This document shows, piece by piece, positions 1,456 to 30,464 of a DNA stretch of 64,000 bases; position 1 is the stretch's first letter, and the number at the start of each line of letters is the position of its first letter. The stretch comes from Minisyncoccota bacterium (GTDB taxonomy: Bacteria; Patescibacteriota; Minisyncoccia; Phycocordibacterales; CAJBRS01). The notes below the pieces were generated by a model. The model worked only from the letters and a program-made list of their open reading frames with translations. It was not told where the DNA came from and ran no database searches. Position numbers and translations under genes: made by a program. Where the stretch lies: assembly GCA_017881075.1 (NCBI GenBank), contig JADGRH010000003.1, forward strand, positions 64,682-128,681, in the 5' to 3' direction.

Positions 1456-1583
1456 TGGATGTAGTCGGCGCCCATACTTCAAGTCCTTCACAACGCGACG
1501 TTGTGGAGGCTTTTTATTTTCCTCATGAAATTTTTTTAAAGTTTTGGTTTGAATAATCCTCGGCGATAGGCGATACTCTATCC

Positions 1584-3242
1584 ATGACTCAAGCAGAAGC
1601 ACTGGATATCTTAAAGATGGGACACAATGTATTTATCACCGGCGCAGCTGGAAGTGGCAAAACTCACACTCTGCGTGCCTATATTGATTATTTGAACAAG
1701 AGCAATGCGAGCGTTGCCATTACCGCATCCACGGGAATTGCGGCTACGCACATTGGTGGTAGCACCATTCACTCATGGAGCGGCCTGGGAGTCCGCGATT
1801 CTCTTTCCGAGCAGGACTTAAGTGAAATGGAAGAGCGACAATATCTCTGGCGACGATATGATCAAGTAAGGATTTTAATAATTGATGAAGTTTCAATGCT
1901 CCATCATTTTCGATTTGATCTTTTGGATAAAATTTGCCGATTTTTCAAAAGAAACGATGCCCCCTTCGGGGGCATGCAAATAGTGCTTTGCGGTGACTTC
2001 TTCCAACTGCCGCCAGTCACCATAATGGGGGAGCCGGAGGCAAGCTTCATTCATAAATCAGATGTTTGGGAAGAGATGAATTTGAAGATCTGCTATCTCT
2101 CCGAACAGCATCGCCAAAATATTGAAGACGAATATTTTAAAATCCTAAATGAGATCCGCGGGAATGATGTCGGCACGGATACATACGAACTCCTACAATC
2201 CCGTCTTAACCAAGAATCCGAATCAAAAATTCCGCCGACTCGTCTCTACACTCACAACATTGATGTTGATGCCGTGAATAACCGCGAGCTCGGAAAGATT
2301 GCGGGGGAGGCAAAAATTTACGCCATGTCTTCCAAAGGAAGGGCCGCTATAGTGGAGACTTTGAAAAAGAGTTGTCTTTCACCGGAGAAACTTTCTCTTA
2401 AAATTGGAGCCAAAGTAATGTTCGTTAAAAATAATTTTGAGAAACATTATGTTAATGGAACATTGGGGATAGTTGTGGCTTATGATTCAGCCGGTTATCC
2501 TATTGTGGAAACTCTTTCTGGAAAGAGGATACTGGCCACACCGGAGAGCTGGATGATAGAAGAAGAGGGCAAGATTAAAGCCGAGATCAATCAAGTGCCG
2601 CTCCGGCTCGCCTGGGCTATTACTGTGCATAAAAGCCAAGGAATGAGCCTTGATGCGGCAGAAATGGACCTATCAAAATCTTTCATTAAAGGGATGGGAT
2701 ATGTGGCTCTTTCGCGAGTGCGTAGTTTAAAAGGCTTGAAGCTACTCGGTATCAATCAAATGGCTCTGCGAGTAGATGAAGGTGTTTTTGAATACGATCA
2801 AACTCTCCGATCACTTTCAAAACAAAGCCAAAGTGAGTTAAAGAAGATGACCGCAAGCGAAATGAAAAAAGAGCAGGGAGAATTTCTGGCGAAAGTTGCT
2901 GGCTCCAAAAAAATTAAGGAAGAAAAAATAGCCACTCATCACAAAACCAAAAATCTTTTGCTCCAGAAGCTCTCTTTGGAAGAAATGGCAGAGGCGCGTG
3001 GGATGACCACCGAGACTATTGTCAGTCATATTGAGAAATTACTAGAGGAAGATCCGTCGTTTGATGTTCAGTATCTTTTCAATGCTAATTTTACTGATGA
3101 GCGTTTTCAGAAAATTGAAAAAGCTTTTGAAAAATCTTTAGCCAAGAATGGCGACTATCGTTTGGCGCCGGTGCGAGGTCTGCTTGGGCCCGATTTTGAT
3201 TATTTGGAACTGCGCATAGCGAGGTTGTTTTTGGGAAAGTAG
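1584..3242 (+). CDS. PIF1/RecD-family ATP-dependent DNA helicase
   Basis: Walker A GAAGSGKT, LIIDEVSM (motif II), FFQLPPV, AITVHKSQG, C-terminal HhH-like tail; typical PIF1-like SF1B motif order. Confidence 0.8.
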   Translation: MTQAEALDILKMGHNVFITGAAGSGKTHTLRAYIDYLNKSNASVAITASTGIAATHIGGSTIHSWSGLGVRDSLSEQDLSEMEERQYLWRRYDQVRILIIDEVSMLHHFRFDLLDKICRFFKRNDAPFGGMQIVLCGDFFQLPPVTIMGEPEASFIHKSDVWEEMNLKICYLSEQHRQNIEDEYFKILNEIRGNDVGTDTYELLQSRLNQESESKIPPTRLYTHNIDVDAVNNRELGKIAGEAKIYAMSSKGRAAIVETLKKSCLSPEKLSLKIGAKVMFVKNNFEKHYVNGTLGIVVAYDSAGYPIVETLSGKRILATPESWMIEEEGKIKAEINQVPLRLAWAITVHKSQGMSLDAAEMDLSKSFIKGMGYVALSRVRSLKGLKLLGINQMALRVDEGVFEYDQTLRSLSKQSQSELKKMTASEMKKEQGEFLAKVAGSKKIKEEKIATHHKTKNLLLQKLSLEEMAEARGMTTETIVSHIEKLLEEDPSFDVQYLFNANFTDERFQKIEKAFEKSLAKNGDYRLAPVRGLLGPDFDYLELRIARLFLGK

Positions 3243-3310
3243 TCTTGAAAGGAATTGAACAAAAACCAAAACTAAGTAATAATGGAATGGTTATATAATA
3301 AATCAAAACA

Positions 3311-3730
3311 ATGAGCGAAAAATTTGAACCAAATCCATTGACTCCTGAAACACCTCCTGAGAAATCGATTCAGAGACTTGCTGAAGAGATTTACAAGAAG
3401 AGACCAAAGGATGGCCCTATGATTATTATGGATGTGGACGAGACAAAAAGAGAAGCTCTTTTGACTGCAGTGTCAGTGCTCTGTAAGACTGGTGAAGTTG
3501 AGGAACCAATGCCTCCAATATTTTTTGTTAACGATAAAGAAGATCTTGCTTCATTAGCCCCGAAATTAGTGGATGACGAAAGCACAATAAGACAAGCAAT
3601 GGAAAAACTTCAGCTCGCCGATTTTCCCGAACCAATCTTAGTCGATGAGAAACCTCCAGAACCATGGCACCCAAAAGCTAAACATCCTCCCTGGGAAAAA
3701 CGTCCCAAGAAAAAAGGAAGGAGAAAATAA
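3311..3730 (+). CDS. hypothetical protein, Pro/Lys-rich C-terminus
   Basis: 139-aa ORF immediately upstream of the TrmB-like gene (8-nt gap), probably co-transcribed. Confidence 0.45.
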   Translation: MSEKFEPNPLTPETPPEKSIQRLAEEIYKKRPKDGPMIIMDVDETKREALLTAVSVLCKTGEVEEPMPPIFFVNDKEDLASLAPKLVDDESTIRQAMEKLQLADFPEPILVDEKPPEPWHPKAKHPPWEKRPKKKGRRK

Positions 3731-3737
3731 ATAAAAA

Positions 3738-4505
3738 ATGGCTCAAAATTTATATCAGTTTTTAAAAAACATAGGCATTTCTCAAAAAGAGGTAAATGTT
3801 TACATCTATCTTTTGTCGGTGGAATCAGCTCTGCCAATGGAAATTGCTAAGGAGACCAATCTTAAGAGGTCCACTGTATATGTAATCCTCGAACTCCTAA
3901 AAGAGAAAGGGTTAGTGCGCGAGGTAGAGCGAGGCAAACGCTCCGCCTATATCTCGGAAGACCCGGAAAGAATCAGATTTCTTTTGGAACAACTTCGACT
4001 TCAGACGGAAAATAGTATTAAGGGATTGAATATCATAATTCCTCAACTGAAAGCCACTCTTCGAAAAGAAGGGGAGCCGCCACTGATCAGATTCTTTGAA
4101 GGAGAAAAAGCGGTTCAGGTCTCAATGGAGGAATTGGCGGACAATCCTAAATTTAGAAAAGAGTTAAATTATGATGTTTTTCCACTTGAGCTAATCTATA
4201 AATTATTCCAGAGAAAGAATTTGCGAAAATATATTAATCTTCGCATTCATAACAATGAAAACTTCAAAATCCTCTATACATCAGATGAAGGAGGGTTAAC
4301 CAACGCGGAGACACACGGACAAGAAGCGATCAAGATTGACCAAAAAGAATTTCCTCTATCATGTGACATCGCCATCTTTGAAGATGAGGTTAGAATTCAT
4401 ATGTTGGGTAAACCTATTTACGGCATATTGATTAAAAACTTGGAATTGGCCCAGACTCTCACTAGTATTATCAAATTGGCAATAAAAGGAGCCAAGGTAA
4501 ATTAG
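3738..4505 (+). CDS. TrmB-family winged-helix transcriptional regulator
   Basis: N-terminal HTH pattern Y.FLK..G.S..E..VY.YLL......EIA.ET.L.RSTVY.IL..L.EKGLV typical of TrmB; ~255 aa. Confidence 0.6.
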   Translation: MAQNLYQFLKNIGISQKEVNVYIYLLSVESALPMEIAKETNLKRSTVYVILELLKEKGLVREVERGKRSAYISEDPERIRFLLEQLRLQTENSIKGLNIIIPQLKATLRKEGEPPLIRFFEGEKAVQVSMEELADNPKFRKELNYDVFPLELIYKLFQRKNLRKYINLRIHNNENFKILYTSDEGGLTNAETHGQEAIKIDQKEFPLSCDIAIFEDEVRIHMLGKPIYGILIKNLELAQTLTSIIKLAIKGAKVN

Positions 4506-4858
4506 GCAAATATTTCTCATACAGATTGTTTCAATTATCTAGTAAGAATTAGACAATTATTGTATTTAGTTTGTTAAAACAGGCCTGATTACCCAATTCT
4601 TTTGTTATATATAAACATTTTCTACTTAAAATGAGAGCAACAATTCTTACTCGTCTAATCATCATTGACACTTATTGTCACTTGCTCTAATTTTACATCA
4701 GAAACAGTTTTTTGACAGCCGGCACGGGCTTCCACTTACAGTTTCGCCGGCCTTCTTCACAGCTCGGAGGGGAATTCATTAATGCCCTCCAAGCTGTGAT
4801 CTGCGTTCAAATGGACGTGGAAGGCTAGCAAAACCAAGTAAATAAGGAGAAATAAGTT

Positions 4859-6139
4859 ATGAGTATACGTTTCGTTATCTCAGTTATGTTGGTTGGCCTT
4901 TACATGGCCATATCAATCCTGTATCCAGTAGCCCAAGGCCCGATCGAAGGAAAGATCGCGGCCAGTATGGTCCAAGATAGTGATGCGTCTTATGCAGCGG
5001 CTCACGCCCTGCTCACGACGCATTCGCCGATAACCATTATCGGTTGGGCAGTGTTCATAGCATTGCTCGTCATCTGGGTGCCAGTTTTACGGCGCGCCCT
5101 CAAGCGCCCCACTAAAACGGCAGCGACATTTCTCGGGTGTATCGCCTTTTTGGCGACCATTCTCACCACGGGATGTGTGGGACCTTATAAGGTAGAGAAG
5201 TTCGAGACCATCGAATCAAACGAGACGGCCTTCGTCGTTCCCTTGGAGGGTGCGACGCTCGCCAATCAAGCGAAGTTCATGTCTATCGACTATCTCAATT
5301 CGCCTGAAGTGAAAGTGGCGACCAAGCGGATCACTATTCCGCAACGGCAACGCGACACAGGACGGGTGGCCGGTAATTACGAATGGATTGACACCGTTCG
5401 CGTCATCAAGGTAAACCGGGCGCCTATCACCAGACAGTGGGTGAAGGCCTCAACACAAGGCACTTCTAAATCCGACGAGGCCATCGAGGTGGAGTCTAAA
5501 GAGTCAATCGACTTCTACACCGGAGCGGTCTGCAGCGGGTTTATCGCTGAAGAGGATGCGGCAAGGTTCCTCTATTATTTCGCCGGGAAACCTTTAAGCG
5601 AAGTGATGGACGAGAACGTACGCGGGTATGTTCAAAACCTGATGTGGGTGGAGTTTGGTACGCGGGACTTGACCGCTGCCAAAGAGGCCAAGAAAGAGAT
5701 CATGGATGCGGTTTCCAAATCGACGAAGGAGTTCTACTCCAAGCAAGGGATAACGATCTCTTACGTCGGTGGAGCTGAAGGTCTGACCTACAAGGATCCA
5801 AAGATCCAAGAATCCATCAACTCGGCCTTCATCGCCGAGAATGACCGCAAAGTGGCGGATCAGGAGAATCAGGCCCAAACGATTAGGAATACCAAATTGG
5901 TTTCCATCGCTACAGCACAGCGTCAGGCGGCTGAAGAGTTCGCCAAAGCGCAGAATGCCATGATTGCCAAGACCCAGCTCGAGATCCAAATGAAGCAGGC
6001 AGACGCCATGCTGGAGATCGCGCATAACTCGCACGGCATCAGCATCCAACCGGGTGCGATCTTGTCTGAAGGGTCGCCCTTCCTGTTTGGCCTGGATAAG
6101 GTCACGGGAGCTCGGCCGCCGGTCACTGCAAATAAGTAA
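4859..6139 (+). CDS. membrane-anchored SPFH/band-7-like protein (inferred), GC-rich
   Basis: N-terminal TM segments; C-terminal Ala/Gln/Glu-rich coiled coil resembling HflC/K tails; visibly higher GC than the backbone; SD AGGAGA upstream. Confidence 0.45.
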   Translation: MSIRFVISVMLVGLYMAISILYPVAQGPIEGKIAASMVQDSDASYAAAHALLTTHSPITIIGWAVFIALLVIWVPVLRRALKRPTKTAATFLGCIAFLATILTTGCVGPYKVEKFETIESNETAFVVPLEGATLANQAKFMSIDYLNSPEVKVATKRITIPQRQRDTGRVAGNYEWIDTVRVIKVNRAPITRQWVKASTQGTSKSDEAIEVESKESIDFYTGAVCSGFIAEEDAARFLYYFAGKPLSEVMDENVRGYVQNLMWVEFGTRDLTAAKEAKKEIMDAVSKSTKEFYSKQGITISYVGGAEGLTYKDPKIQESINSAFIAENDRKVADQENQAQTIRNTKLVSIATAQRQAAEEFAKAQNAMIAKTQLEIQMKQADAMLEIAHNSHGISIQPGAILSEGSPFLFGLDKVTGARPPVTANK

Positions 6140-6206: not shown

Positions 6207-6316
6207 TTTTAATTTAACTTTTCTTTATGGGAGATTCATCACCCATTTATATATTTAAGTAATAGCAGAAAGATTTGCAAGGATTTGGGTATTCCTGAAG
6301 AAGATTAAAATTAAAA

Positions 6317-6347
6317 AATCCGGCCGAAGCATTTGTCGGCCGGATTA
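6317..6347. terminator. conserved hairpin AATCCGGCCGA-N8-TCGGCCGGATT (family copy 1), bidirectional terminator
   Basis: perfect stem; A-run upstream and T/A-run downstream; sits between convergent genes; same arms as copies at 7708 and 9474. Confidence 0.65.
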
Positions 6348-6361
6348 TCAAAACCATTCGC

Positions 6362-6733
6362 TTAGCTCACGGATGATTGTGTGAGCTGGAGATCAAGAAG
6401 TCGGATTACTGTGTCGGGCACGTCGTCCTTGCGCGATGCATGACTACATCCGGCCGACATCATCAGTTGTTGGACCTTAAAGCATCCCGCCGCTGTTACT
6501 ATCGGCATGGCAGACTTCTGGCGCAATTCGCGAATGAAAGGTTCAGTATTATAGGTATAGCCCGGAACACAGCCATCAACGACTACCAGATCAAAAGGAT
6601 CCGAGCGGTCCAGGATTTTCTGGGCACCCTCCAAGTCAAACGCTTGGTTGATAACAACCTCGTATCTGCAAAGTTTCTTCTCCCAGTCGAGCTGGTACTG
6701 CGGGTTATCCTCTACAAGTAAGATTTTTTTCAT
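6362..6733 (-). CDS. stand-alone CheY-like receiver domain protein (canonical acidic pocket: LLVEDN .. DLVVVD .. T .. K)
   Basis: MKKILLVEDN, FDLVVVDGCVPG, PIVTAAG motifs; 123 aa; paralog of 7736..8089 and 9503..9856. Confidence 0.6.
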   Translation of the reverse strand: MKKILLVEDNPQYQLDWEKKLCRYEVVINQAFDLEGAQKILDRSDPFDLVVVDGCVPGYTYNTEPFIRELRQKSAMPIVTAAGCFKVQQLMMSAGCSHASRKDDVPDTVIRLLDLQLTQSSVS

Positions 6734-6793
6734 AATTCTAAATCGGATACTACATTAAATGCCAAAAAAATCAAAATCAGGTAGTATTAACCC

Positions 6794-7705
6794 ATGGATC
6801 AATCTCAAAACTCCACTAGAGAATATTCTGCCATTAGCCCAACATCTCGCAGCTCATTTTGGATGAAAACTTTCACCGACATTCCTTACGTGCGGGAAAT
6901 ATACGACGAGCTGGAAAAAGGGAAGCAGAGTGGAGCGGAAAGCAAAATCAGGGATTACGGAATCAATCATGTTGGTCTCTCAAGTATTGCTCCATATTTT
7001 GAGGCGAGATACTTAATCATTAATAGATTATTGAAAGAAGTTGGAGCGACACAGATTATTGAATTAGCTTCCGGCCTCACTCCTCGGGGTCTTGAGCTTA
7101 CCAAAGATCCAAATATCACTTTCATCGAATTAGACCTCCCTGATGTAATCGAAGAGAAAAAGAAAATAGTGGAAAATATTATAAGAGAGCATAAAATCGG
7201 CGATCGTAACAATTTGTATCTGGAAGCAGGAAGCGCCCTGGAAGAAGCGGATATCATGAAAGCCGCCTCTCATTTTGATGAAAAGAAAGAGATCGCTATT
7301 ATTAATGAAGGATTACTTCGCTATCTGAAAAGAGACGAACAGGCAAAAATGGCTCAGGCGATCTTACCCGTGCTTCAAAAATTCGGGGGAGTATGGATCA
7401 CCCCTGATATTGGCATCAGAGATAAAATGCTGGCAGGACAAGCGAAATTGTCGCCGATATTCATAGACAGAACTAAAAAGTTGGAAAAAATGACGGGCGC
7501 TGGAAATTTTTCCGACAACCTTTTCGCCGATGCTGCAGAAGCCAAGGCAATCTATGAAAAACTAGGATTTGAGATAGAGATGCATACTTACTCTGAAGTA
7601 TCCGATCAACTCGTTTCACCCACTAAACTCGGTCAACCAAAAGAGATTACAGACTCACTTATGGAATGGAGCAAGGTCTTTGTGATGCACCCAAAGACCA
7701 AATAA
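6794..7705 (+). CDS. class I SAM-dependent methyltransferase, leucine carboxyl methyltransferase (LCM)/TcmP-like
   Basis: IIELASGLTPRGLEL resembles the LCM motif VV.LGAGLDTR; acidic residue after beta2 (IELDLPD); 303 aa; leaderless-style start 6 nt after TAGTATTA. Confidence 0.5.
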   Translation: MDQSQNSTREYSAISPTSRSSFWMKTFTDIPYVREIYDELEKGKQSGAESKIRDYGINHVGLSSIAPYFEARYLIINRLLKEVGATQIIELASGLTPRGLELTKDPNITFIELDLPDVIEEKKKIVENIIREHKIGDRNNLYLEAGSALEEADIMKAASHFDEKKEIAIINEGLLRYLKRDEQAKMAQAILPVLQKFGGVWITPDIGIRDKMLAGQAKLSPIFIDRTKKLEKMTGAGNFSDNLFADAAEAKAIYEKLGFEIEMHTYSEVSDQLVSPTKLGQPKEITDSLMEWSKVFVMHPKTK

Positions 7706-7707
7706 AA

Positions 7708-7738
7708 AATCCGGCCAGAGAATTCACGGGCCGGATTA
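7708..7738. terminator. conserved hairpin AATCCGGCC-N12-GGCCGGATTA (family copy 2)
   Basis: same arms as 6317 and 9474; between convergent genes. Confidence 0.65.
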
Positions 7739-8089
7739 CGAAAAACTTCTGAGTCCTAACAGCATGATGATGGTATTTACCAAATCGTCAGGATGAGCCT
7801 CATGGGTGCATCGAAAATAATTCAACATAATCTGTCGGATACCGGGACTTTTGTCCACAACCACAATGGGTCCATTGCAATGAGGAGGAAGACTCTTCAG
7901 AAGTGCTCCGGTGTTGAACGTTTTTGACCCAACACAAGTTTCGACGGCTACAAGGTCATAACGATCAGATTCCTCAATCGCGAATCTAACGTCGTAGGCG
8001 TAGCTTGCGCTGACGTCATATTCCTCCAACCTCCTTTGCCACTCGGTCGCCAGGTCATTGTCATTAGTCACAATTAAGATATTCTTCAT
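7736..8089 (-). CDS. receiver-fold paralog with degenerate phospho-acceptor site (ILIVTNDND .. DLVAVETCVG)
   Basis: 117 aa; ~65% identical to 9503..9856; the Asp of the DLVxxD pocket is replaced by Glu and the beta4 Thr is absent. Confidence 0.55.
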   Translation of the reverse strand: MKNILIVTNDNDLATEWQRRLEEYDVSASYAYDVRFAIEESDRYDLVAVETCVGSKTFNTGALLKSLPPHCNGPIVVVDKSPGIRQIMLNYFRCTHEAHPDDLVNTIIMLLGLRSFS

Positions 8090-8219
8090 TAGTCTTTCCT
8101 CATATTACACAGCCTTCCTTGGAAATCAAGGTAGAAATGGAAGTTATACCGAAAATAAAAAAGCGGCCACCCCTTTCGAAGTGCCGCTTGTTTGAACGCG
8201 ATGCGCGCTAAGATACCGC

Positions 8220-9350
8220 TTACTCTCTTAGCATCAGCGAGACCGTGTCGGGGAACGTTGTTGTGTAATCCCCGAAGATCTGCATGCCGAAACTTTTCGG
8301 CGTCACTTTGTCCCAAGTGATCTTCTCGTTGGCACCGGCGCCGGAATATGATCCGACACTCATTGGGGATGTGTGGTACTCGACGAAACCTCCCCATGGT
8401 CTGATGAGCTTGTCCTGTAGACGATGTGATTCGTCTGCGAGGAAGTCATGCTTGAGGTGGGGGACAACGCAAATGGCGAAGTCTCCAGCAATGCCGCCAC
8501 CAAGCTGGACGAAAGCCAGCGGAGTTTTGCGGGTCACGTCCATGTAGAATTCCGCGAGCGCATGCATGTACGAAATCCCCGGAAGGACCACGTTCATGTC
8601 GATCGGCGCCTCGATCTTGTAATTTTTCAAGAACCAATGGTCGCCCTTGTAGCACGCCTGAGCAAAAATATTGCCCATCGTAGAATCTTCGAATCCAGGA
8701 ACGAAGAGCGGAATGTCGAGTTTTGCAGCTTTGCGAAGCCAACATTCTTCCGCATTGGCCGTCGGATCTTTTCTGATCAGATCGTGCTTGAACAGGTGAT
8801 AGAAATACTGATGCCAGAGTTTCCGCTCCTTATTTACTCCGGCGATCCTCCATTGCTTCATGAGCTTGGGCAGGATGACTCTGACCGATTCGTCTTCCGG
8901 CAGGATCGTGTCTGTGATTCGGCGGAAACGAAGGCGGCGAAGCTCCTCTTCCTGTTTGGGCGTCAAGGATTGATAGTTGGGAATGTAGACATAATACTGA
9001 TTTGCTGAGAATCGGTAGGCGCTTTCTTCCATGTTCGCGCCGGTAACTGACATTCCGGCGATGTATCCGGCGTCCATCAGTCTGGTGATGGGTACACCGA
9101 GCTGGAATGATGATCCGGCTCCGGCCATTGATAAGAATATCTTGCCGCCCTCTTCGCAGAAATCTCGAAGCCAAAGGCCGGCATCGACAGTTCTTCCTCC
9201 GTTGCAATGGCGCTTGTTCTGGACCAGTGAATTTGAGACGGGGCTGTCTGCGCTGGGGGTATAACGTCGTTCTCCCACAGTGATCATCTTGCGAAGCCCA
9301 GGACTGAGCTGAGCCATTTTTTGTTTAAGGGACATGATTTGATTTGACAT
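8220..9350 (-). CDS. deoxyhypusine synthase-like protein (DHS/homospermidine synthase family)
   Basis: Blocks matching eukaryotic/archaeal DHS: IPLFVPGFEDSTMGNIF ~ IPVFSPALTDGSLGDMIF, LGGGIAGDF ~ LGGGVVKHH, YSGAGANEKITWDKV ~ DSGARPDEAVSWGKI, C-terminal F.D..TTFP ~ YADASLVFP. Confidence 0.7.
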   Translation of the reverse strand: MSNQIMSLKQKMAQLSPGLRKMITVGERRYTPSADSPVSNSLVQNKRHCNGGRTVDAGLWLRDFCEEGGKIFLSMAGAGSSFQLGVPITRLMDAGYIAGMSVTGANMEESAYRFSANQYYVYIPNYQSLTPKQEEELRRLRFRRITDTILPEDESVRVILPKLMKQWRIAGVNKERKLWHQYFYHLFKHDLIRKDPTANAEECWLRKAAKLDIPLFVPGFEDSTMGNIFAQACYKGDHWFLKNYKIEAPIDMNVVLPGISYMHALAEFYMDVTRKTPLAFVQLGGGIAGDFAICVVPHLKHDFLADESHRLQDKLIRPWGGFVEYHTSPMSVGSYSGAGANEKITWDKVTPKSFGMQIFGDYTTTFPDTVSLMLRE

Positions 9351-9473
9351 AGTGCTTTCCTCGGTTTGTGTTGTTCTTCTCTTCTGAAATCATATTACTT
9401 AAATAGGGGATTAGTTCAAGTTATGGGTTTTCCAAATTTTGAGCGGGTTTTTCACGAAATTGAAGAAAATAAA

Positions 9474-9505
9474 AAATCCGGCCTGTGAATCGGTCGGCCG
9501 GATTA
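9474..9505. terminator. conserved hairpin AATCCGGCC-N12-GGCCGGATTA (family copy 3)
   Basis: same arms; lies directly 3' of receiver paralog 9503..9856. Confidence 0.65.
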
Positions 9506-9856
9506 AGAATAGCGCTTCAATTCAAGAAGAGTGACGATGAGAGACACCAACAAGTCCGGATGCGCGCCATGTGTGCATCCAAAATCTCTAATCATTGCCT
9601 GACGGATCTCCGAACTCTCGTCCACGATCACTATTGGTCCATTAGAATGGGCAGGGAGACTCTTGAGGAGTGGGCCCGTATTGAATGTCTTGGAGCCAAC
9701 GCAGGTCTCTACCGCCACGAGGTCATAACGGTCTTGATTGGAAACCGCATAACTTACGTCATAGGCGTAGCTTGCGTTGACTGCGTATTCATCCAGTCTA
9801 TTCCGCCAATCGGACAGATGGTCATTGTTAGTAGACACAATTAGGATAAACTTCAT
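9503..9856 (-). CDS. receiver-fold paralog with degenerate phospho-acceptor site
   Basis: MKFILIVSTNND .. YDLVAVETCVGSKTFNTG; 117 aa; paralog of 7736..8089. Confidence 0.55.
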   Translation of the reverse strand: MKFILIVSTNNDHLSDWRNRLDEYAVNASYAYDVSYAVSNQDRYDLVAVETCVGSKTFNTGPLLKSLPAHSNGPIVIVDESSEIRQAMIRDFGCTHGAHPDLLVSLIVTLLELKRYS

Positions 9857-9954
9857 ATTTCTATTTCCGATACTACATCAAATATCCCAAAAATCAATTT
9901 TTCCTGGACACCCCTTGAAATTGAAGAAAAAACAAAATCGGGTAGTATTACCTC

Positions 9955-10353
9955 ATGAACATACCAGCTTGGTATTCACAATTAATTAAACCTTCTTGGG
10001 CGCCACCATCGTGGCTCTTCGGGCCGGTATGGACATTTCTGTATGTCTTGATCGCCATTTCATTTGGCAAAGTATTTTTGATGGCATGGAAGAAAGAGAT
10101 TGCCCTCATGGTGGCCTTGCCGTTTTTACTCAATCTAATATTCAACTTCGCTTTCACACCCCTCCAATTTGTCCTCAAAAGCAACCTCCTCGCCGCCCTC
10201 GACATCCTTCTAGTTCTCGGCACTCTCATCTGGGCCATGCTGGCTATCTATCCCTATGCCAGATGGATCGCCTATATCCAAGTCCCATACCTCCTCTGGG
10301 TCCTCTTCGCCACCATTCTCCAATTAACGATTACGTATCTCAATCTAAATTAA
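9955..10353 (+). CDS. tspO: TspO/MBR family tryptophan-rich sensory protein
   Basis: KPSWAPPSWLFGPVWTFLY signature plus further TM helices; 132 aa (slightly short, so the N-terminus may be truncated or extended). Confidence 0.75.
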   Translation: MNIPAWYSQLIKPSWAPPSWLFGPVWTFLYVLIAISFGKVFLMAWKKEIALMVALPFLLNLIFNFAFTPLQFVLKSNLLAALDILLVLGTLIWAMLAIYPYARWIAYIQVPYLLWVLFATILQLTITYLNLN

Positions 10354-10390: not shown

Positions 10391-10750
10391 ATGATTTTTA
10401 ATATGACTAAGATTGAGGATCTGATTACAAGAGTGACTGCATTTAGAGATGATAGAGACTGGAAACAGTTCCATAATCCCAAAGATAATGCTATCGGATT
10501 AGTTCTGGAAGCCTCGGAGGTTTTAGAGCTATTCCAGTGGAAAAATAAAGAAGAAATTGACAAGTATATAAAATCACATAGCGAAAATATTTCTGACGAA
10601 CTAGCGGATGTTATGTATTGGGTTTTATTAATGTCACATGACTTGAATATTGATATCGGAAAGGCTATAGAAAAGAAACTTAAGAAAACAGAAGAAAAAT
10701 ACCCTATAGAAAAATCCAAAGGTAATCATAAGAAGTACACAGAACTTTAA
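10391..10750 (+). CDS. MazG-like nucleotide pyrophosphohydrolase
   Basis: DWKQFHNPKDNAIGLVLEASEVLELFQW followed by ELADVMYW .. L: MazG/NTP-PPase EExxE-type helix pair; 119 aa. Confidence 0.7.
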   Translation: MIFNMTKIEDLITRVTAFRDDRDWKQFHNPKDNAIGLVLEASEVLELFQWKNKEEIDKYIKSHSENISDELADVMYWVLLMSHDLNIDIGKAIEKKLKKTEEKYPIEKSKGNHKKYTEL

Positions 10751-10754
10751 TCTT

Positions 10755-12608
10755 ATGATTCTATATAAAAATAATCTAAAGGATTTTAAAATTCACGTTG
10801 ATACTAATCAGATCGGGGATTTAATCGAGAAATCTTTTAGAGAAAAATTAGGGCACAAAGTTGCTCCAAATGAAAAAAGGTCATGGACTAATTCTATGTC
10901 GTTTATGGAGAAAATAGTCAGAAGGGCTGATCTTTCGGATACTTGCGGAGTTATGTTGGAATATATTATTCCAAACACTTCTAACAGAATCGACTTTTTA
11001 ATTTCCGGGGAAGACGAGAAAGGGAACAAGAATTTTATAATTATTGAATTGAAACAATGGGAAACATCAGAATCTACTGATAGAGATGGTGTAGTAAGGA
11101 CTTTTGTGGGAGGAGGAGTACGCGAAACTACGCACCCATCTTACCAGGCCCATTCCTATAAATTGTTTTTAAGTGACTACAATGAAAATATTGATTCTGG
11201 CATTCTTTCACCATACGCTTGCGCGTATCTGCATAATTATAAAGAGCGGAGTCCGGAGCCTCTAAAGGCTCAAATATATGAATCTGTTATTAAGGTAGCG
11301 CCAGTTTATTTTAAGGACGATTATGAAAAATTGGAGCAGTTTTTGCATAATTATGTTAGGTTCGGAAAAGGAGAAGAAATCTTGTATCAAATTGAAGCCG
11401 GCAGAATAAAACCTAGCAAAAAACTTATTGAGCATATTCAAAAAATGTATGAAGGAAACCAGGAATTTATATTACTGGATGAGCAAAAGGTGGCATATGA
11501 GACAGCTCGATCTGTAGCAAAGAAAGTTAAAGAAAAATCTGTCGTAATTATAAAAGGTGGTCCAGGGACGGGTAAATCTGTAATCTCAATGAATTTATTG
11601 GGAAGCCTATTAAAGGATGAACTTAATGTAAACTTTATTGCCCCTAACTCTGCCTTTAGAGAAGTAATGATTCATAGATTAGCAAGGAAGGAGACTAAAT
11701 TAAGGTTAAAAAACTTGTTTAAAGGCTCTGCTGGTTTTGTAAATGCCAAGAAAGACACATTTGATACTTTAATAGTGGATGAAGCACATAGATTAAAGAA
11801 AAAAGGTGCTTATCAATACAAGGGGATAAATCAGATAGAAGATATCGTTAATTCTGCTAGAACGTCTATCTTTTTTGTCGATGATAATCAGATGATTCGT
11901 CCAGACGATATAGGTTCAGTTCAGGAGATTAAAAGAGTGGCTGATAAAAATAAGGCAAGAATTTATGAAATAGAATTAGTCGCCCAATTTAGGTGTGCTG
12001 GGGCAGAAGGTTATCTTAATTGGCTCGACAATACATTACAGATTAAAGAGACAGCGAATTTTGATGGATGGGAGCAAAAAGATTTTGAGTTTAAGATTTT
12101 TAATGATCCTAACGACTTAAGGAAAATGATAAAAGAAAAGCATGATAAAGGATTTAATGCTCGAATTCTTGCTGGCTATGCTTGGAAGTGGACAAGTGTA
12201 GGGGAGGGCAATAAAAGTGGAGAAGTTGAAGATGTCTTAATCCCCGAATTCGATTTCAAAATGCCGTGGAATGCTCGACAAATTGGAACAACTTGGGCGG
12301 TTGATCCAAAAGGTATTGATCAGGCAGGATGCATTCATACTTCACAAGGTCTGGAATTTGACTACGTTGGAGTTTTGGTAGGCAATGATTTACGTTTTGA
12401 TTCCAAAAAACTTGACTACCATGCTCACTGGGTATCCTACAAAGATACGACGGGGAAAAAAGGGCTGAAAAATAACCCGGAAGAATTAACTAAATTAGTA
12501 AAAAATATCTACAAGGTTCTTATGAGCAGGGGTATGAAGGGATGCTATGTTTATTTTACTGACAAAGAAATGGAGAGATATTTTAAATCACGCTTAGGTA
12601 TCAAATAA
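10755..12608 (+). CDS. nuclease-helicase: N-terminal PD-(D/E)xK-like fold + P-loop SF1-like NTPase + DUF2075-type C-terminal region (Schlafen-helicase / Nhi-like architecture)
   Basis: N-term RIDFLI .. IIELKQWE (D .. ExK); Walker A VVIIKGGPGTGKSVIS; Walker B/DEAH LIVDEAHRL; 4-nt gap after the MazG-like gene (operon). Confidence 0.65.
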   Translation: MILYKNNLKDFKIHVDTNQIGDLIEKSFREKLGHKVAPNEKRSWTNSMSFMEKIVRRADLSDTCGVMLEYIIPNTSNRIDFLISGEDEKGNKNFIIIELKQWETSESTDRDGVVRTFVGGGVRETTHPSYQAHSYKLFLSDYNENIDSGILSPYACAYLHNYKERSPEPLKAQIYESVIKVAPVYFKDDYEKLEQFLHNYVRFGKGEEILYQIEAGRIKPSKKLIEHIQKMYEGNQEFILLDEQKVAYETARSVAKKVKEKSVVIIKGGPGTGKSVISMNLLGSLLKDELNVNFIAPNSAFREVMIHRLARKETKLRLKNLFKGSAGFVNAKKDTFDTLIVDEAHRLKKKGAYQYKGINQIEDIVNSARTSIFFVDDNQMIRPDDIGSVQEIKRVADKNKARIYEIELVAQFRCAGAEGYLNWLDNTLQIKETANFDGWEQKDFEFKIFNDPNDLRKMIKEKHDKGFNARILAGYAWKWTSVGEGNKSGEVEDVLIPEFDFKMPWNARQIGTTWAVDPKGIDQAGCIHTSQGLEFDYVGVLVGNDLRFDSKKLDYHAHWVSYKDTTGKKGLKNNPEELTKLVKNIYKVLMSRGMKGCYVYFTDKEMERYFKSRLGIK

Positions 12609-12658
12609 TTTATCTTTATTTTAGCGTTGCTTCATGATACACATGGTAGGTTGTCGTC

Positions 12659-12820
12659 ATGAAGAAACAAAAGATCAAAGATAGTGACAACGCCTATTTA
12701 ATAAGCAGTAACAACTATGAAGACGATAATTGCCCCATCTGCAATCTAATGAGGCGATGTGAAATAGAGGAAAGAGAACCCACCTCACAAGAGATTAAAG
12801 AGGTGATGAAATTTAAATGA
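12659..12820 (+). CDS. small CxxC zinc-ribbon-like protein (53 aa), speculative
   Basis: MKKQKIK .. CPICNLMRRC ..; not in the ORF track (under 60 aa); AT-rich. Confidence 0.25.
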   Translation: MKKQKIKDSDNAYLISSNNYEDDNCPICNLMRRCEIEEREPTSQEIKEVMKFK

Positions 12821-12910
12821 TCCTATTTATGCACGGCCTTTATCTAAAAAATGGCCAATGGACCAAAGAGAGAGCAGTAAAAATATCTGCGTATCATTTC
12901 ACTTATGGAT

Positions 12911-12932
12911 AATCCGGCCTGCTCTGCCACGC
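12911..12932. repeat. left arm of 22-bp terminal inverted repeat AATCCGGCCTGCTCTGCCACGC
   Basis: revcomp matches 13320..13342 at 21/22; shares the AATCCGGCC core with the three cassette terminators. Confidence 0.6.
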
Positions 12933-13319
12933 TTGTATTGCCCTCTACTTTTTTTATGGCATACTTAAAAAAGAAATCCATGACAGACCTAATCTGATCT
13001 TTAAATATAAACCCTATTTTGCAGGTATGAAGAGACAATAAAGCATCGATTAAAAAATAATATGACCAATAAATATAGCAATAATCTTGTTACATAGAAT
13101 TTCAAATTTACTTAAAATATGGCTCTAATCAAGAACTAATTAAGATATGCACAGCTTATCCACTGGTAAGCTATTTACAAAACTGCTAGATTATGATACA
13201 TTAAGAGAGGAATATTTCTTTTTCCCCTCTTGCTGATTATAATAAGCTTTTCTTTCATAATAGGAAAAATAATATTAGCTAAATACTTGACTCCAAAAAT
13301 TTTGGAGAGTATTATGCAA

Positions 13320-13342
13320 GCGCGGCAGAGCAGGCCGGATTA
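13320..13342. repeat. right arm of the 22-bp inverted repeat GCGCGGCAGAGCAGGCCGGATTA
   Basis: see 12911..12932; arms flank ~390 bp of AT-rich non-coding DNA. Confidence 0.6.
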
Positions 13343-13359
13343 TCAATAAATTAAATTAT

Positions 13360-13761
13360 ATGACCAACGACAAATCTTTTTTGGAGGATCTCTATACTGA
13401 CAGTGGGGGATTCGACCGCGAACGGGTAGTGCGGGTGCTCCAAACCATACTAACCATTCAGCGGGGCGACCATAAAGTCTTCTTTAAAAAAGAGGCAACA
13501 CTAGAAGCTGCGGACAAAATTTTGGCTTATGCGTTAGTAAAAAAGCTTTTAAAGACAGAGGGGGTAACTGAAACGAGTAGTGTCTCGGGAAAGGAACTGA
13601 AGAAGCAAACGGGTGTAAAGTCCGGGACGGTCGATTTTACAATTAAAAAACTTAAAGAGGAAGATGGTCTGCTTGTTGGCAGCGGTAGCAATTATGAAAT
13701 ACCAGCACACAAAGTTGAAGACATCTTAGAGCGTCTTGAAAAATGCGCTTCCAAAAAATAA
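13360..13761 (+). CDS. hypothetical protein with C-terminal winged-HTH-like motif
   Basis: SVSGKELKKQTGVKSGTVDFTIKKLKEEDGLLVG resembles a wHTH recognition helix/wing; first gene of a tight 4-gene operon. Confidence 0.4.
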   Translation: MTNDKSFLEDLYTDSGGFDRERVVRVLQTILTIQRGDHKVFFKKEATLEAADKILAYALVKKLLKTEGVTETSSVSGKELKKQTGVKSGTVDFTIKKLKEEDGLLVGSGSNYEIPAHKVEDILERLEKCASKK

Positions 13762-14206
13762 ATCTATGGAAAATAACATAAAAAAAATACTCGGAGAAAT
13801 ACTCACATCCATAAAGAGCCTTGAAAAACGAGTTACTCTCATAGAAAGCAAGACACCGAGCATGAGTACACCATCACATGATCTTCCCATTGCCTCGAAG
13901 AAGATGTCGATAAAGGAGTTCCTAATTGATCGCTCTCCAGCAAATGGAGTACAAACAACTCTCGCGGTCGCATATTATCTAGAAAAATATGACAAGATCT
14001 CGCCATTTAATGCCAGTGACATAGAGAAAGCATTTCGTTCCGCTAAGGAACCAGTGCCCAACAATATCAATGATAAAGCAAATATGTGTATTAAAAATGG
14101 TCATTTAATGGAAGGAGAGGATAAGAAAGACAATATGAAAGCGTGGGTAGTCACTCGAAGCGGAGAACAATACGTTCAGGAAAAATTTGATCGTTATAGT
14201 CATTAA
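13736..14206 (+). CDS. hypothetical protein; C-terminal domain shared with the next gene
   Basis: 26-nt overlap with the upstream gene; C-terminal pattern (hydrophobic stretch .. SPFNASD .. K.G .. KAWVVTRSGEQY) parallels 14236..14784. Confidence 0.4.
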   Translation: MKNALPKNKSMENNIKKILGEILTSIKSLEKRVTLIESKTPSMSTPSHDLPIASKKMSIKEFLIDRSPANGVQTTLAVAYYLEKYDKISPFNASDIEKAFRSAKEPVPNNINDKANMCIKNGHLMEGEDKKDNMKAWVVTRSGEQYVQEKFDRYSH

Positions 14207-14235
14207 AAATAAAATTATTCACTAATATAAATATT

Positions 14236-14784
14236 ATGTCTGAAGCAGAAATAGTAGAAATCGTAGGGAAAATTGTTACTGCACTCACTCCTCTTTCTCA
14301 TGAGGAACGACAGAGGGCGGTGCAAGCGTCTTTAAATGTATTTGGTGAATCCATGCTCAGGTCTACACAAAGAAAAGACGAACTCAATGAAATTCCCTCT
14401 GCATTTAGTGAACGCGCGCGGATATGGATTAAACAGAACGAGCTTTCTTTGGAAAATTTAGAACAAATTTTTCATATTACTGATACTGGAGCAGAATTGA
14501 TTATTCAAGAAGTGCCGGGAGGAAAGGATAACAAACCCAGGGTGCTAAATGTGTATGTTCTTTCTGGCGTAGCTTCCCTACTCACCTCAGAAAATTCTAA
14601 TTTCGACGACAAAGTTGCAAGAACCATATGTGAATCATTTGGATGTTACGATCCAACAAATCACACTAAATACCTAAAGAAAAGTAAATTCTTTACAGGA
14701 TCCAAAAAAACAGGATGGACCTTGACTGCTCAGGGTTTAAAACATGCAGCCATGTTAGTTAGAGAACTGAGTAAGCCCCAATAG
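14236..14784 (+). CDS. hypothetical protein; C-terminal domain paralogous to the previous gene
   Basis: C-terminal .. VYVLSGVASLL .. NFDDKVARTI .. TGWTLTAQGLKHAA aligns with the preceding protein's tail. Confidence 0.4.
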   Translation: MSEAEIVEIVGKIVTALTPLSHEERQRAVQASLNVFGESMLRSTQRKDELNEIPSAFSERARIWIKQNELSLENLEQIFHITDTGAELIIQEVPGGKDNKPRVLNVYVLSGVASLLTSENSNFDDKVARTICESFGCYDPTNHTKYLKKSKFFTGSKKTGWTLTAQGLKHAAMLVRELSKPQ

Positions 14785-14786
14785 AT

Positions 14787-15527
14787 ATGATTTTCACATT
14801 TAAAAATATTCCGATCAATCTTTCTGAAAAATTGGTTGAGGAATACTTGGAAATAAAGAAACGCCATTCAATGAGTGATTGGGGCCCAAGTCAATTAAAA
14901 GGCGGTAGATTTGCAGAAGCTATGTTACGCATTTTCCAACATTTGCTCGGTATTTCTATTACACCATTTGGGACCAACATTCCAAACAAAGACCGTATTT
15001 TAAATGCTGTAAAAATTCACCCGTCATTGGATGACCACATTCGTCAAAAAGTAGCACCTCTTATAAGACTTCTTCTAGATTTTCGTAATAATCGAGATGT
15101 AGCACACCTCGGAGGATTCAATGCAAATAGCATGGATACTCTTTTTGTGATGACAACAGCGACATGGATTTTGTGTGAACTGATCCGTGTTTATGGAGGG
15201 CAAAGTATGGACACCGCTCAAAAACTAGTAGACTCACTTTCCGTTAAAGAGTATCCAGTGCTAATGGAGTTCGAAGGAGAGCTCTTTATTACTCGACACA
15301 ATCTCAACGCAGAACAAGAAGTGCTAATATTTTTGTATAAAAATCGTAAAGCAGGCTACAATTTTTTGTCTTCAAAGACAAAGGACAGCAATTCTTCACG
15401 TTTTAAGAAAATTTTAGAGAAAATGGTTGCGGTAAAGTTCATTGGCAGCAAGGCAAATCAGTACTTTATCATGCCTCGTGGAATCGAGCGTGTAGAAAAA
15501 GAACGCTTATTGATCTATTCAAACTAG
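14787..15527 (+). CDS. hypothetical protein with HEPN-like R-x6-H motif (RNNRDVAH), candidate RNase
   Basis: 3-nt gap from the previous gene; motif LLLDFRNNRDVAHLGGF fits the HEPN Rx4-6H signature within a predicted helical context; inference only. Confidence 0.35.
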   Translation: MIFTFKNIPINLSEKLVEEYLEIKKRHSMSDWGPSQLKGGRFAEAMLRIFQHLLGISITPFGTNIPNKDRILNAVKIHPSLDDHIRQKVAPLIRLLLDFRNNRDVAHLGGFNANSMDTLFVMTTATWILCELIRVYGGQSMDTAQKLVDSLSVKEYPVLMEFEGELFITRHNLNAEQEVLIFLYKNRKAGYNFLSSKTKDSNSSRFKKILEKMVAVKFIGSKANQYFIMPRGIERVEKERLLIYSN

Positions 15528-15612
15528 GAATCAACAAGGCCAAGGCTGTTTTTTATATCTATTTCATCTTTTCTTCATAAATTTTTCATATTTAAAATGT
15601 TATGATGTGTGA

Positions 15613-16083
15613 ATGCAAAAGGACTTTACCTTTCAATTAATAAAGGGAAAAATCAGCGAAACTATATTTGATCAGATGTTTCGAGAAGCAGGGGAGTTTA
15701 CAGTTATCCCCTTTGGTTATGAAGCTTTAGTCCCGGAAATTGCTCAGCTTGCTCGTTCATTAGAACGCAAGGAAGTTCTGGACTCAATTAGGAATAGTCC
15801 TGATTTTGCACTGGTCTCTCATAGTCAGAAAAAGGTATTTCTAGTTGAAGTGAAATATAGGTCGCATTTACACGAAGATGACGTGTTAAATATTGCTCAG
15901 ATGGTTCACGACAGATGGAAACTAGCGTGGTTGTTCATTGCTACTCCGGAAGGATTCTATTTTGATAGTTGCTCGGATGTCTTAAATACTAAGACCATTA
16001 ATAAACTTAAACCAACATGGATCAATGCCGAACTCCAGGAAAAGTATTTAGCAGTAATGAATAAGTTTCAAGTTAACCATTAA
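15613..16083 (+). CDS. PD-(D/E)xK restriction-endonuclease-fold protein
   Basis: E(A)L .. PDFALVSH .. VFLVEVKYR = canonical E .. PD .. (D/E)xK arrangement; 156 aa. Confidence 0.5.
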   Translation: MQKDFTFQLIKGKISETIFDQMFREAGEFTVIPFGYEALVPEIAQLARSLERKEVLDSIRNSPDFALVSHSQKKVFLVEVKYRSHLHEDDVLNIAQMVHDRWKLAWLFIATPEGFYFDSCSDVLNTKTINKLKPTWINAELQEKYLAVMNKFQVNH

Positions 16084-16102
16084 GTAGAGGTAAGAATTTC
16101 TT

Positions 16103-16861
16103 ATGTTCTCAGATCCAATCATTGAAAATTTAAAGTATTACGTTTATATACTTGTTGATCCGAGCAATAATAAGCCTTTTTATATTGGAAAAGGAATAGG
16201 AAATAGGGTTTTTTCCCATCTAAAAAATGAAATTGAAGACGAGTCTAAGATTTCATTAAAACAAGCGCTTATTAAAAATATTCAGGATCAAGGGAAAGAT
16301 GTTGAGATATACATAGTACGACACGGTTTAAATGAGAAGGAGGCATTTGAGATTGAGGCGACACTTATTGATTTTATCCAACTTAGAAATCTTACTAATG
16401 AAATAGTAGAGCACGACTATAAGGAAGAAATACCAGCTAAAAATCTGGCTAATATTGTTTTAGGACATCATGCGGGAGAAAGGGGGCTTATGACGCTAAA
16501 TGAAATACTCCAGTTGTATGGTGCAGAAGAGGCTAATATTACCGACCCAGTAATAATAATTAATATAAATCGAAAATATAAACGGGGCATGAGTCCGAAT
16601 GAAATATATGAAGCAACTCGAGCATCTTGGGTCATAAGCAAAGATAGGTCACAGAAAGCTAAATTTGTTCTCGCATCATTTCGTGGAATAGTAAAAGAAG
16701 TTTTCTATGTTAATCATTGGCAACAATCTAAGAATTCAAACCGCTTAGAATTTGAAGGAGGTGTTGCTCAGTTAGAGATTGCTGAAAAATATAGAAACAA
16801 AGCTATAACTAATTATTTGAAGACGGGGGCACAAAACCCAATTAGATACGTAAATTGTTAG
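16103..16861 (+). CDS. GIY-YIG nuclease domain protein with ~150-aa C-terminal extension
   Basis: YYVYILVDPSNNKPFYIGKGIGNRVFSH .. E (GIY/YIG with Arg, His and Glu); 20-nt gap after the PD-(D/E)xK gene. Confidence 0.6.
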   Translation: MFSDPIIENLKYYVYILVDPSNNKPFYIGKGIGNRVFSHLKNEIEDESKISLKQALIKNIQDQGKDVEIYIVRHGLNEKEAFEIEATLIDFIQLRNLTNEIVEHDYKEEIPAKNLANIVLGHHAGERGLMTLNEILQLYGAEEANITDPVIIININRKYKRGMSPNEIYEATRASWVISKDRSQKAKFVLASFRGIVKEVFYVNHWQQSKNSNRLEFEGGVAQLEIAEKYRNKAITNYLKTGAQNPIRYVNC

Positions 16862-16963
16862 ATTAAATTGTACTATTCTCATGCCAGATGAATTGGAAAA
16901 TCAGGAATTAAAGGGGTCAGAAGTCATTTTTATATTAAATTTTATCTTTCTGTTGTATTAATC

Positions 16964-30453: not shown

Positions 30454-30464
30454 AAGACAAATCA

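Follow-up and report, generated by a model that had tools for sequence, protein, structure and literature searches.

SpeY and CdmS, the closest described relatives of the gene considered here, are derived from deoxyhypusine synthase (DHS), with characterised examples from Thermus thermophilus (PMC10981699) and from a range of bacteria (PMC13625781); SpeY enzymes have lately been found to produce homospermidine starting from agmatine (PMC13625781). The substrate site of CdmS departs from that of human DHS at exactly Asp243 (Phe204 in CdmS) and Asp316 (Leu286), and the catalytic lysine is kept (PMC10981699). Validated SpeY genes occur in clusters with SpeB and arginine decarboxylase (ADC), with agmatine iminohydrolase (AIH), N-carbamoylputrescine amidohydrolase (NCPAH) and ADC, or with SpeB and a SpeD-derived ADC, and one validated SpeY belongs to the Bacteroidota species Winogradskyella algicola (PMC13625781). 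A 64,000-nucleotide stretch of a Minisyncoccota (Patescibacteria) genome (contig JADGRH010000003.1, positions 64,682 to 128,681; this whole stretch is hereafter the window) encodes a DHS-like protein of 376 amino acids (aa) that is probably, judging from sequence comparison, an active NAD-dependent agmatine-coupling enzyme of homospermidine biosynthesis of the SpeY/CdmS ('diagmatine synthase') type.

In the chemistry proposed for this enzyme, NAD+ would oxidise the primary amine of agmatine, Lys348 would hold the 4-guanidinobutyl group as an imine, and the amine of a second agmatine would receive this group, with subsequent reduction to N1,N9-bis(guanidino)homospermidine. Conversion of this product to homospermidine would fall to a ureohydrolase, or to an iminohydrolase and an amidase, encoded elsewhere. 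Agmatine as the substrate, the identity of the product, and the existence of partner enzymes elsewhere in the genome are presumptive parts of the proposal.

Family, fold and active site of the DHS-like protein

The window protein matches the Deoxyhypusine synthase family of Pfam (PF01916, 78.7 bits, E = 6.1e-22, gathering cut-off 27). The match spans residues 66-367 of the protein and covers positions 29-282 of the 288 in the profile. A search of PDB sequences with the protein itself returned archaeal DHS alone, weakly (E = 5e-4), and a profile of 27 family sequences returned archaeal and human DHS with E-values of 1e-8 to 1e-11. An AlphaFold2 model based on the 27-sequence alignment (pLDDT 88.1, pTM 0.87) was compared with the PDB by Foldseek, and the 50 matches listed were all DHS (probability 1.0, E from 8e-13 to approximately 2e-10, TM 0.62-0.78, approximately 15% identity). 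The protein is a member of the DHS superfamily with, according to this model, a DHS fold. A preliminary description of this DNA, made without database searches, had already assigned the protein to the DHS superfamily on the strength of a GGG region and of YSGAG and C-terminal motifs, which are indeed present at residues 284-286 and 333-348; it named a best match in an unrelated family, such as the SIR2-like proteins or the carbamoyltransferases, as the result that would overturn this identity. No such match was found in the Pfam, NCBIfam, PDB sequence or fold searches, and the window protein is therefore regarded as a DHS-fold protein.

Residue equivalences were taken from a MAFFT alignment with human DHS (reference sequence identical to PDB 1rlz) and 45 members of the clade to which the window protein belongs, named here the EDSTMGNI clade after one of its motifs, with hhalign as a second alignment. 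Lys329 of human DHS is the nucleophile that forms the enzyme-imine, and its counterpart, Lys348, is invariant in 45/45 family members examined. The motif GSYSGAG...EKITWDK of the window protein (residues 333-348) lies opposite GSDSGAR...SWGK329 of the human enzyme. The residues kept in the window protein and throughout the 45 clade members are E136/E137, D238, GGG282-284, E323, W327, K329 and D342 (human numbering, as for all positions below that are not otherwise assigned), and the NAD contacts comprise E109 (E137 in human DHS), D222 (D238), G285 (G283) and the equivalent of D342. Thus, both the catalytic lysine and the NAD-binding residues, which the preliminary description had left to be checked, are in place.

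The positions that bind spermidine in human DHS are changed: Asn227 is found at D243, Tyr335 at D316, and Asp290 at H288 in the MAFFT alignment. Because hhalign inserts seven residues near the GGG loop and sets Pro297-His298 opposite human His288-His289, in disagreement with MAFFT, the equivalence of human His288 is uncertain. D313 corresponds to V in the window protein and to F or Y in other clade members. At positions 243, 316 and 288, canonical SpeY references have F, C/L and N, respectively, and they have in common with the window clade G105, T-G-A at 131-133, and F289. At 136/137, the window protein has EE, as in DHS, versus D-M or D-Q in canonical SpeY. As far as these alignments indicate, the catalytic apparatus is intact and the spermidine-binding residues of DHS are lost, a SpeY-like pattern with other replacement residues.

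A comparable mixture is found in the Haloferax volcanii pHV3 enzyme annotated as DHS (locus L092, 2947-3921), which keeps His288 and has Asn at 243 and Leu at 316, and which thus partly shares the non-spermidine signature of SpeY and the EDSTMGNI clade. The main polyamines of H. volcanii are reported to be agmatine and cadaverine (PMC5178350).

The clade is marked in the window protein by the motifs EDSTMGNI, M[SA]GAGS[ST]F[QE] and GSYSGA..EKITW.K. In a neighbor-joining tree (200 bootstraps) with Sphingomonas SpeY, Trichormus variabilis SpeY and Haloferax volcanii DHS (plasmid records) and human DHS as outgroups, the EDSTMGNI clade is monophyletic (100% bootstrap support) and is split, together with canonical SpeY, from archaeal and human DHS (98.5%). 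The window sub-clade (97%) is sister to a 'mid' sub-clade (100%). The Sphingomonas SpeY reference gene is located immediately 3' of a gene for a type III pyridoxal-phosphate-dependent decarboxylase. In the phylogenetic comparison that the preliminary description had called for, the protein groups with SpeY as opposed to DHS, but lies outside the SpeY equivalog as currently modelled, with approximately 19% identity to canonical SpeY.

DHS homologs had also been described as rare in bacteria, which is not the case: a protein search returned at least 7,856 clusters at E <= 1e-3, and at least 600 stretches were picked out in species-representative genomes by the two motifs EDSTMGNI and M[SA]GAGS[ST]F[QE]. 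The best 120 of the at least 7,856 clusters are 50-63% identical to the window protein, and those named among them are each a 'deoxyhypusine synthase family protein' of Absconditabacterales, Patescibacteria or Pacebacteria. In the motif scan, identities to the window protein are 57-60% for metagenome-assembled genomes (MAGs) of the SR1/Absconditabacteria type, 43-47% for Peregrinibacteria, Doudnabacteria and Bdellovibrionota MAGs, and 34-40% for Bacteroidota (Chitinophaga, Myroides, Flavobacteriales), Ignavibacteria and Poseidoniales archaea. Proteins of the window sub-clade are approximately 370 aa long versus approximately 325 aa for the Bacteroidota forms, relative to which the window protein has an N-terminal extension of approximately 45 aa. 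The EDSTMGNI clade is large and widespread, and it is annotated merely as 'deoxyhypusine synthase family protein', without a curated equivalog model.

Polyamine gene context and possible functions

Sister sub-clades of the window protein (45-50% and 36-40% identical to it; Peregrinibacteria, Poseidoniales, Bacteroidota) are encoded beside polyamine-pathway genes, counted here as an Orn/Arg decarboxylase, an arginase-family gene, or a PAD_porph gene with a CN_hydrolase gene, with confirmation by Pfam. Such genes adjoin 8/13 loci of the mid sub-clade (43-47% identical to the window protein by tblastn, 50% over aligned columns); in three Peregrinibacteria loci (L007-L009), PAD_porph (agmatine-deiminase family) and CN_hydrolase genes are immediately upstream and an Orn/Arg decarboxylase gene is immediately downstream. 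All eight Poseidoniales-type loci (seven labelled Poseidoniales or euryarchaeote, and L026, labelled Rhodobiaceae) have contiguous, co-oriented genes in the order arginase-family, AdoMet_dc-like, DHS-like. Approximately ten Bacteroidota-type loci likewise adjoin polyamine-pathway genes, two MAGs (L033 and L071) having the DHS-like gene together with an arginase-family gene and a gene for a 463-aa decarboxylase. These are the same architectures as those of the validated SpeY clusters (PMC13625781).

Several observations weigh against assignment of the window protein to SpeY-like agmatine coupling. The replacement residues at 243/316 are N and Y, versus F and L/C in characterised SpeY, and position 106 is Ala where canonical SpeY has Ser, presumably the counterpart of Ser67, which binds guanidine in the docking model of CdmS (PMC10981699). 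Profile scores fall far below the curated thresholds, both for the best NCBIfam match (NF001980 / PRK00770, 'homospermidine biosynthesis protein', 54.7 bits versus a cut-off of 450) and for the SpeY equivalog (NF002699, 32.9 bits versus 500), for which the Sphingomonas and Trichormus SpeY positive controls score 564 and 592 bits. The tree has only four outgroup sequences, was built by neighbor joining, and contains long branches. The placement of the W. algicola SpeY inside the EDSTMGNI clade is presumed from architecture and phylum. A tblastn search of the 64-kb window with decarboxylase, agmatinase, deiminase, CN-hydrolase and SpeD-like representatives (best E = 0.09) found no arginine decarboxylase, agmatinase, agmatine deiminase, N-carbamoylputrescine amidase or SpeD-like gene, and no partner gene lies within 6-8 kb of any other examined locus of the window sub-clade (L002-L005 and L082-L089). 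Because the window sub-clade stands alone, the support from gene context is indirect, by way of relatives 36-50% identical. Other parts of the genome may encode the partner enzymes; alternatively, the cell may take up the substrate from outside.

The equivalog models of DHS itself are missed as well (cut-offs 300-434; best NF002006, 45.6 bits versus 434; TIGR00321, 39.2 versus 304), and five other clade members (a Chitinophaga sp., L035; a Flavobacteriales MAG, L078; a Poseidoniaceae archaeon, L018; a Peribacteria MAG, L008; and a close relative, L002) also miss the NCBIfam equivalog cut-offs, with NF001980 scores of 114-129 bits for the Bacteroidota and Poseidoniales members. By these profile scores, the window protein is neither a bona fide DHS nor a modelled SpeY equivalog; it is a member of a third, unmodelled, SpeY-related clade.

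Two genes are of note in L088, a locus of a Patescibacteria-group MAG (L088 coordinates 4528-4998 and 6740-7921): a co-oriented major facilitator superfamily (MFS) transporter gene directly upstream of the homolog, and a TspO gene 3 kb upstream. Another MFS transporter gene is found near the homolog in L082.

The stand-alone sub-clade could instead be a homospermidine synthase or related polyamine synthase that applies the same chemistry to scavenged diamines or triamines (putrescine, spermidine, cadaverine), an arrangement that would suit a reduced episymbiont lacking its own agmatine pathway. The lack of partner genes near every examined member of the window sub-clade, the transporter genes of L088 and L082, the polar N/Y pair at positions where canonical SpeY has hydrophobic residues (F and L/C), and the DHS-like E136/E137 in place of D-M or D-Q are all in keeping with scavenging. 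However, the active sites of the stand-alone and the agmatine-clustered sub-clades differ only at positions 107, 308 and 313, both Asp residues that bind the spermidine amines in human DHS are absent, and every bacterial SpeY tested uses agmatine (PMC13625781), so that polyamine scavenging is considered unlikely.

A broader conjecture for the stand-alone sub-clade of approximately 370 aa, which is frequent in Patescibacteria with minimal metabolism, is that its target is a lysine in a protein such as elongation factor P (EF-P), to which it adds a butylamine-type group, or that it converts host polyamines to a symbiont-specific product. This is improbable, but if true, either version would constitute an undescribed bacterial chemistry, hypusine-like or scavenging. 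Still less probable is the specific proposal of a protein-modifying enzyme, a bacterial counterpart of deoxyhypusination that would place an aminobutyl or guanidinobutyl group on a lysine of EF-P or another protein. The DHS fold with its intact catalytic lysine, the stand-alone position of the closest relatives, the N-terminal extension relative to the Bacteroidota forms, and the N at 243 and L at 316 of the annotated DHS of H. volcanii would accommodate such a function, but the clade groups with SpeY and not with DHS, its sister sub-clades sit in small-molecule polyamine clusters, no EF-P or eIF5A-like gene was found among the window ORFs (open reading frames) scanned, and no conserved candidate gene for a protein substrate adjoins any of the loci. 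Homospermidine-type polyamine synthesis, as opposed to eIF5A modification, is the most likely role, in line with the preliminary description.

The window protein is intact and shows no decay: it keeps 87/87 invariant columns of the 27-sequence family alignment, and its private deviations (at columns invariant in the other 26 sequences) number three, within the range of 0-7 for other members. With the ORF intact in this way and provided with a good Shine-Dalgarno sequence and a terminator, there is very little likelihood that the gene is a passenger without current function, recently transferred and now decaying or unexpressed in an accessory island, notwithstanding its compositionally mosaic surroundings beside a defence island, the lack of partner genes nearby, and a terminal branch that, in the neighbor-joining tree, is longer than those of its nearest relatives.

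A SpeY-like agmatine-coupling enzyme in the window organism would be one more of the SpeY enzymes derived from DHS, in this case from Patescibacteria. No new kind of system is indicated. What escapes every curated equivalog model is a very large SpeY-related clade spanning Bacteroidota, marine Poseidoniales and many candidate-phyla bacteria, and the annotation of polyamine pathways in thousands of genomes would gain from a hidden Markov model built for it and supported by one biochemical assay. The stand-alone sub-clade poses a smaller question, namely how reduced symbionts obtain agmatine and complete the pathway.

Genomic setting, composition and neighbouring genes

Coordinates of the DHS-like gene, its expression signals, and other features of the window are given in the table. 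With a Shine-Dalgarno-like sequence and a terminator-like hairpin of its own, and a promoter-like sequence that is sub-threshold (8/12 consensus matches, scan threshold 9), the DHS-like gene reads as a monocistronic unit.

Table. Features of the window (position 1 is the first nucleotide of the 64,000-nucleotide stretch)
Position	Strand	Feature	Basis or remark
570-659		tRNA-Ser(GGA)	Left edge of the variable region
859-4505		Pif1-family helicase and TrmB-like regulator	PADLOC PDC-S68 / RecD-like matches (helicase)
4859-6139		Predicted membrane protein, 426 aa	Same GC-rich block as the DHS-like gene
6309-6353		Hairpin of rec123	
6362..6733	minus	rec123, third receiver-like paralog	Least degenerate
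6714-6796		Divergent intergenic region, rec123 / LCM-like methyltransferase	
7700-7744		Hairpin of rec117a	
7700-8089		Direct repeat unit, terminator and rec117a	
7736..8089	minus	rec117a, degenerate receiver-like paralog	Downstream of the DHS-like gene
8152..8189	minus	Terminator-like hairpin AAGCGGC...GCCGCTT and T-run	3' of the DHS-like stop codon
8220..9350	minus	Coding sequence of the DHS-superfamily SpeY-like protein, 376 aa	Uninterrupted ATG-to-TAA ORF
8307..8309	minus	Codon of K348, equivalent to human catalytic Lys329	Translation YSGAGANEKITWDK; human DHS alignment
8346..8348	minus	Codon of Y335, position of human spermidine-binding Asp316	Alignment; non-acidic as in CdmS/SpeY
8481..8501	minus	GGGIAGD, NAD-binding loop (GGG at 8493-8501)	G284-G286 = human G282-G284
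8670..8690	minus	EDSTMGN motif	D222 = human D238, a retained NAD contact; N227 = human D243, a spermidine contact that is lost
9355..9362	minus	Shine-Dalgarno-like GAGGAAAG, ATG 4 nt further on	Sequence reading
9392..9419	minus	Candidate promoter-like TTGAAC-16 nt-TAATAT	Read from sequence; 5' of the DHS-like gene
9467-9511		Hairpin of rec117b	
9467-9856		Direct repeat unit, terminator and rec117b	
9503..9856	minus	rec117b, degenerate stand-alone receiver-like paralog	Upstream of the DHS-like gene
9837-9957		Divergent intergenic region, rec117b / TspO	
10391-17661		Low-GC block with the look of a defence island	GC3 0.27-0.43
30060-30459		RNase P RNA, bacterial class A	113 bits
30088-30504		Spurious 138-aa ORF	Opposite strand to the RNase P RNA, which it overlaps
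56779-60615		Single-chain large PurL (FGAM synthase), 1278 aa	GC 0.513

The window is evidently chromosomal, with genes for ribonucleotide reductase, LepA, MurJ, LeuRS, TsaD, FtsZ/FtsA, PurL, S1, Pth and signal peptidase, seven tRNAs, and RNase P RNA. The nearest named homologs of its LepA protein (72-77% identical) come from Candidatus Pacebacteria, Parcubacteria and Paceibacterota, which marks the host as a Paceibacteria-like member of the Patescibacteria; the host uses the standard genetic code. The DHS-like gene has a GC content of 0.519 and a third-codon-position GC content (GC3) of 0.618 (the second-highest GC3 in the window), versus 0.427 +/- 0.051 and 0.433 +/- 0.084, respectively, on average for the 62 window ORFs. 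The elevated GC reported in the preliminary description is thus real, and it exceeds the norm for the family: the gene is richer in GC than its flanks by 0.112, versus a mean of +0.031 +/- 0.034 over 86 homologous loci, only 7% of which reach +0.09 or more.

The three closest homologs (61-63% identical) have GC3 of 0.62-0.63 while their flanks range in GC from 0.44 to 0.58, which suggests that the sub-lineage spreads horizontally; in two of the three hosts of these homologs (P0002, P0004 and P0006; loci L082-L087), the gene is, as in the window, approximately 0.10 richer in GC than its surroundings. The hosts of the close sub-clade are mixed, comprising lineages of the candidate phyla radiation (CPR) and one diderm-type genome with AsmA/TamB and TonB context. 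From the GC excess, the GC3 of the homologs, the mixed hosts, and the position of the gene between a tRNA-Ser and a low-GC defence island, horizontal acquisition is plausible, though not proven; the Patescibacteria bacterium probably acquired the DHS-like gene in this way. Origin from a mobile element was considered and rejected: in protein searches, the phage collection gave no match and the plasmid collection only a 23%-identical haloarchaeal DHS.

The DHS-like gene sits in a compositionally mosaic stretch of approximately 17 kb that extends from tRNA-Ser(GGA) to the low-GC defence-type island, and the tRNA region could be the integration boundary of an accessory region. Genes of the low-GC block encode a MazG-like pyrophosphatase, a Schlafen-group-3 helicase (PADLOC PDC-S41/AbiO/Nhi), an NYN-domain protein and a GIY-YIG nuclease matching PD-T4-3 (E = 1e-53), along with several ORFs without a PADLOC match. 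The 426-aa membrane protein has the highest GC3 in the window (0.642) and no Pfam or NCBIfam match. PurL, likewise above the window mean in GC, may be another acquired gene, since purine synthesis genes are unusual in CPR bacteria.

Co-orientation of the DHS-like gene with a degenerate receiver paralog, as first described, is borne out, and there are in fact three such paralogs on the minus strand. The two 117-aa copies, rec117a and rec117b, are 65% identical to each other and 32-34% identical to rec123; in both, the acceptor Asp is replaced by Glu, the acidic pocket is degenerate, the conserved Lys is replaced, and there is no Pfam match. The Asp and Lys are kept in rec123, which is still below threshold for Pfam Response_reg (E = 7e-4, 20.2 bits versus a cut-off of 30.2). 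Each receiver gene has its own hairpin with conserved AATCCGGCC...GGCCGGATT and a T-run. Each 117-aa gene forms with its terminator a unit of 390 nt, and the two units are direct repeats (71-75% identity) on either side of the DHS-like gene, which could be lost or gained through recombination between them. The two divergent intergenic regions (rec123 / LCM-like methyltransferase and rec117b / TspO) are approximately 75% identical, and as the identity extends into the start of the plus-strand coding sequences (their first codons), duplication of the receiver gene apparently took a bidirectional promoter region with it.

The three paralogs belong to an undescribed-looking family of stand-alone CheY-like proteins of approximately 115-125 aa (approximately 349 representatives in an exhaustive HMMER search) that Pfam Response_reg barely detects, with a near-invariant signature DGCVPG...NT...GC.H...K and a Cys that is invariant at the second residue beyond the acceptor Asp. 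When 5.8 billion proteins were searched for this family through a word index, the three paralogs themselves were returned and nothing further.

A functional module of receivers and DHS-like gene was considered and rejected, and no functional link between them is apparent. In a tblastn comparison over 81 loci, none of ten window neighbours (including the receivers, the LCM-like methyltransferase, the 426-aa membrane protein, TspO, the MazG-like gene and the Schlafen-like helicase) recurs at the 80 homologous loci of species-representative genomes, and each receiver gene, like the DHS-like gene, has a separate terminator-like hairpin. The window neighbours are absent from the flanks of the closest metagenomic homologs too, except for the TspO of L088 (38% identical to the window TspO and encoded 3 kb upstream of the homolog), which may be left over from a shared context or be there by chance.

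Comparison with known enzymes

The window protein resembles SpeY/CdmS in its DHS fold, in conservation of the catalytic Lys, W327, E323, D238 and the GGG loop, in the loss of D243, D316 and His288, in the shared G105, TGA at 131-133 and F289, and in that its sister sub-clades are found in clusters of ADC with agmatinase, of ADC with AIH and NCPAH, or of a SpeD-like gene with agmatinase. It differs from canonical SpeY in having N/Y at 243/316, Ala at 106, EE at 136/137 and V at D313 (F/Y in the clade), an N-terminal extension of approximately 45 aa and an insertion of approximately 10 aa after the GGG loop, and no partner genes near its own.

With bona fide DHS (EC 2.5.1.46; human 1rlz/6xxj, archaeal 7cmc and 8put) the protein has in common the fold, the NAD contacts, the catalytic Lys and E136/E137. 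Unlike these enzymes, to which it is 15-20% identical, it has D243, D316 and H288 replaced, falls far short of all DHS equivalog cut-offs, and belongs to a bacterial host, with no eIF5A gene among the window ORFs scanned.

Bacterial homospermidine synthase (HSS; for example, of Blastochloris viridis, PDB 4TVB) would share with the proposed window enzyme the homospermidine product and the NAD-dependent chemistry, but HSS has a non-homologous fold and is putrescine-dependent (PMC13625781), whereas the window protein matched only DHS in the Pfam, PDB sequence and fold searches.

The EDSTMGNI clade, monophyletic and uniform in its active-site residues, counts the window protein as a member, its other members being 36-63% identical to it and distributed among Bacteroidota, Poseidoniales archaea, Ignavibacteria, Peregrinibacteria, SR1/Absconditabacteria and Bdellovibrionota MAGs. 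Within this clade, the Bacteroidota forms are often clustered with ADC and agmatinase genes, whereas the window sub-clade stands alone.

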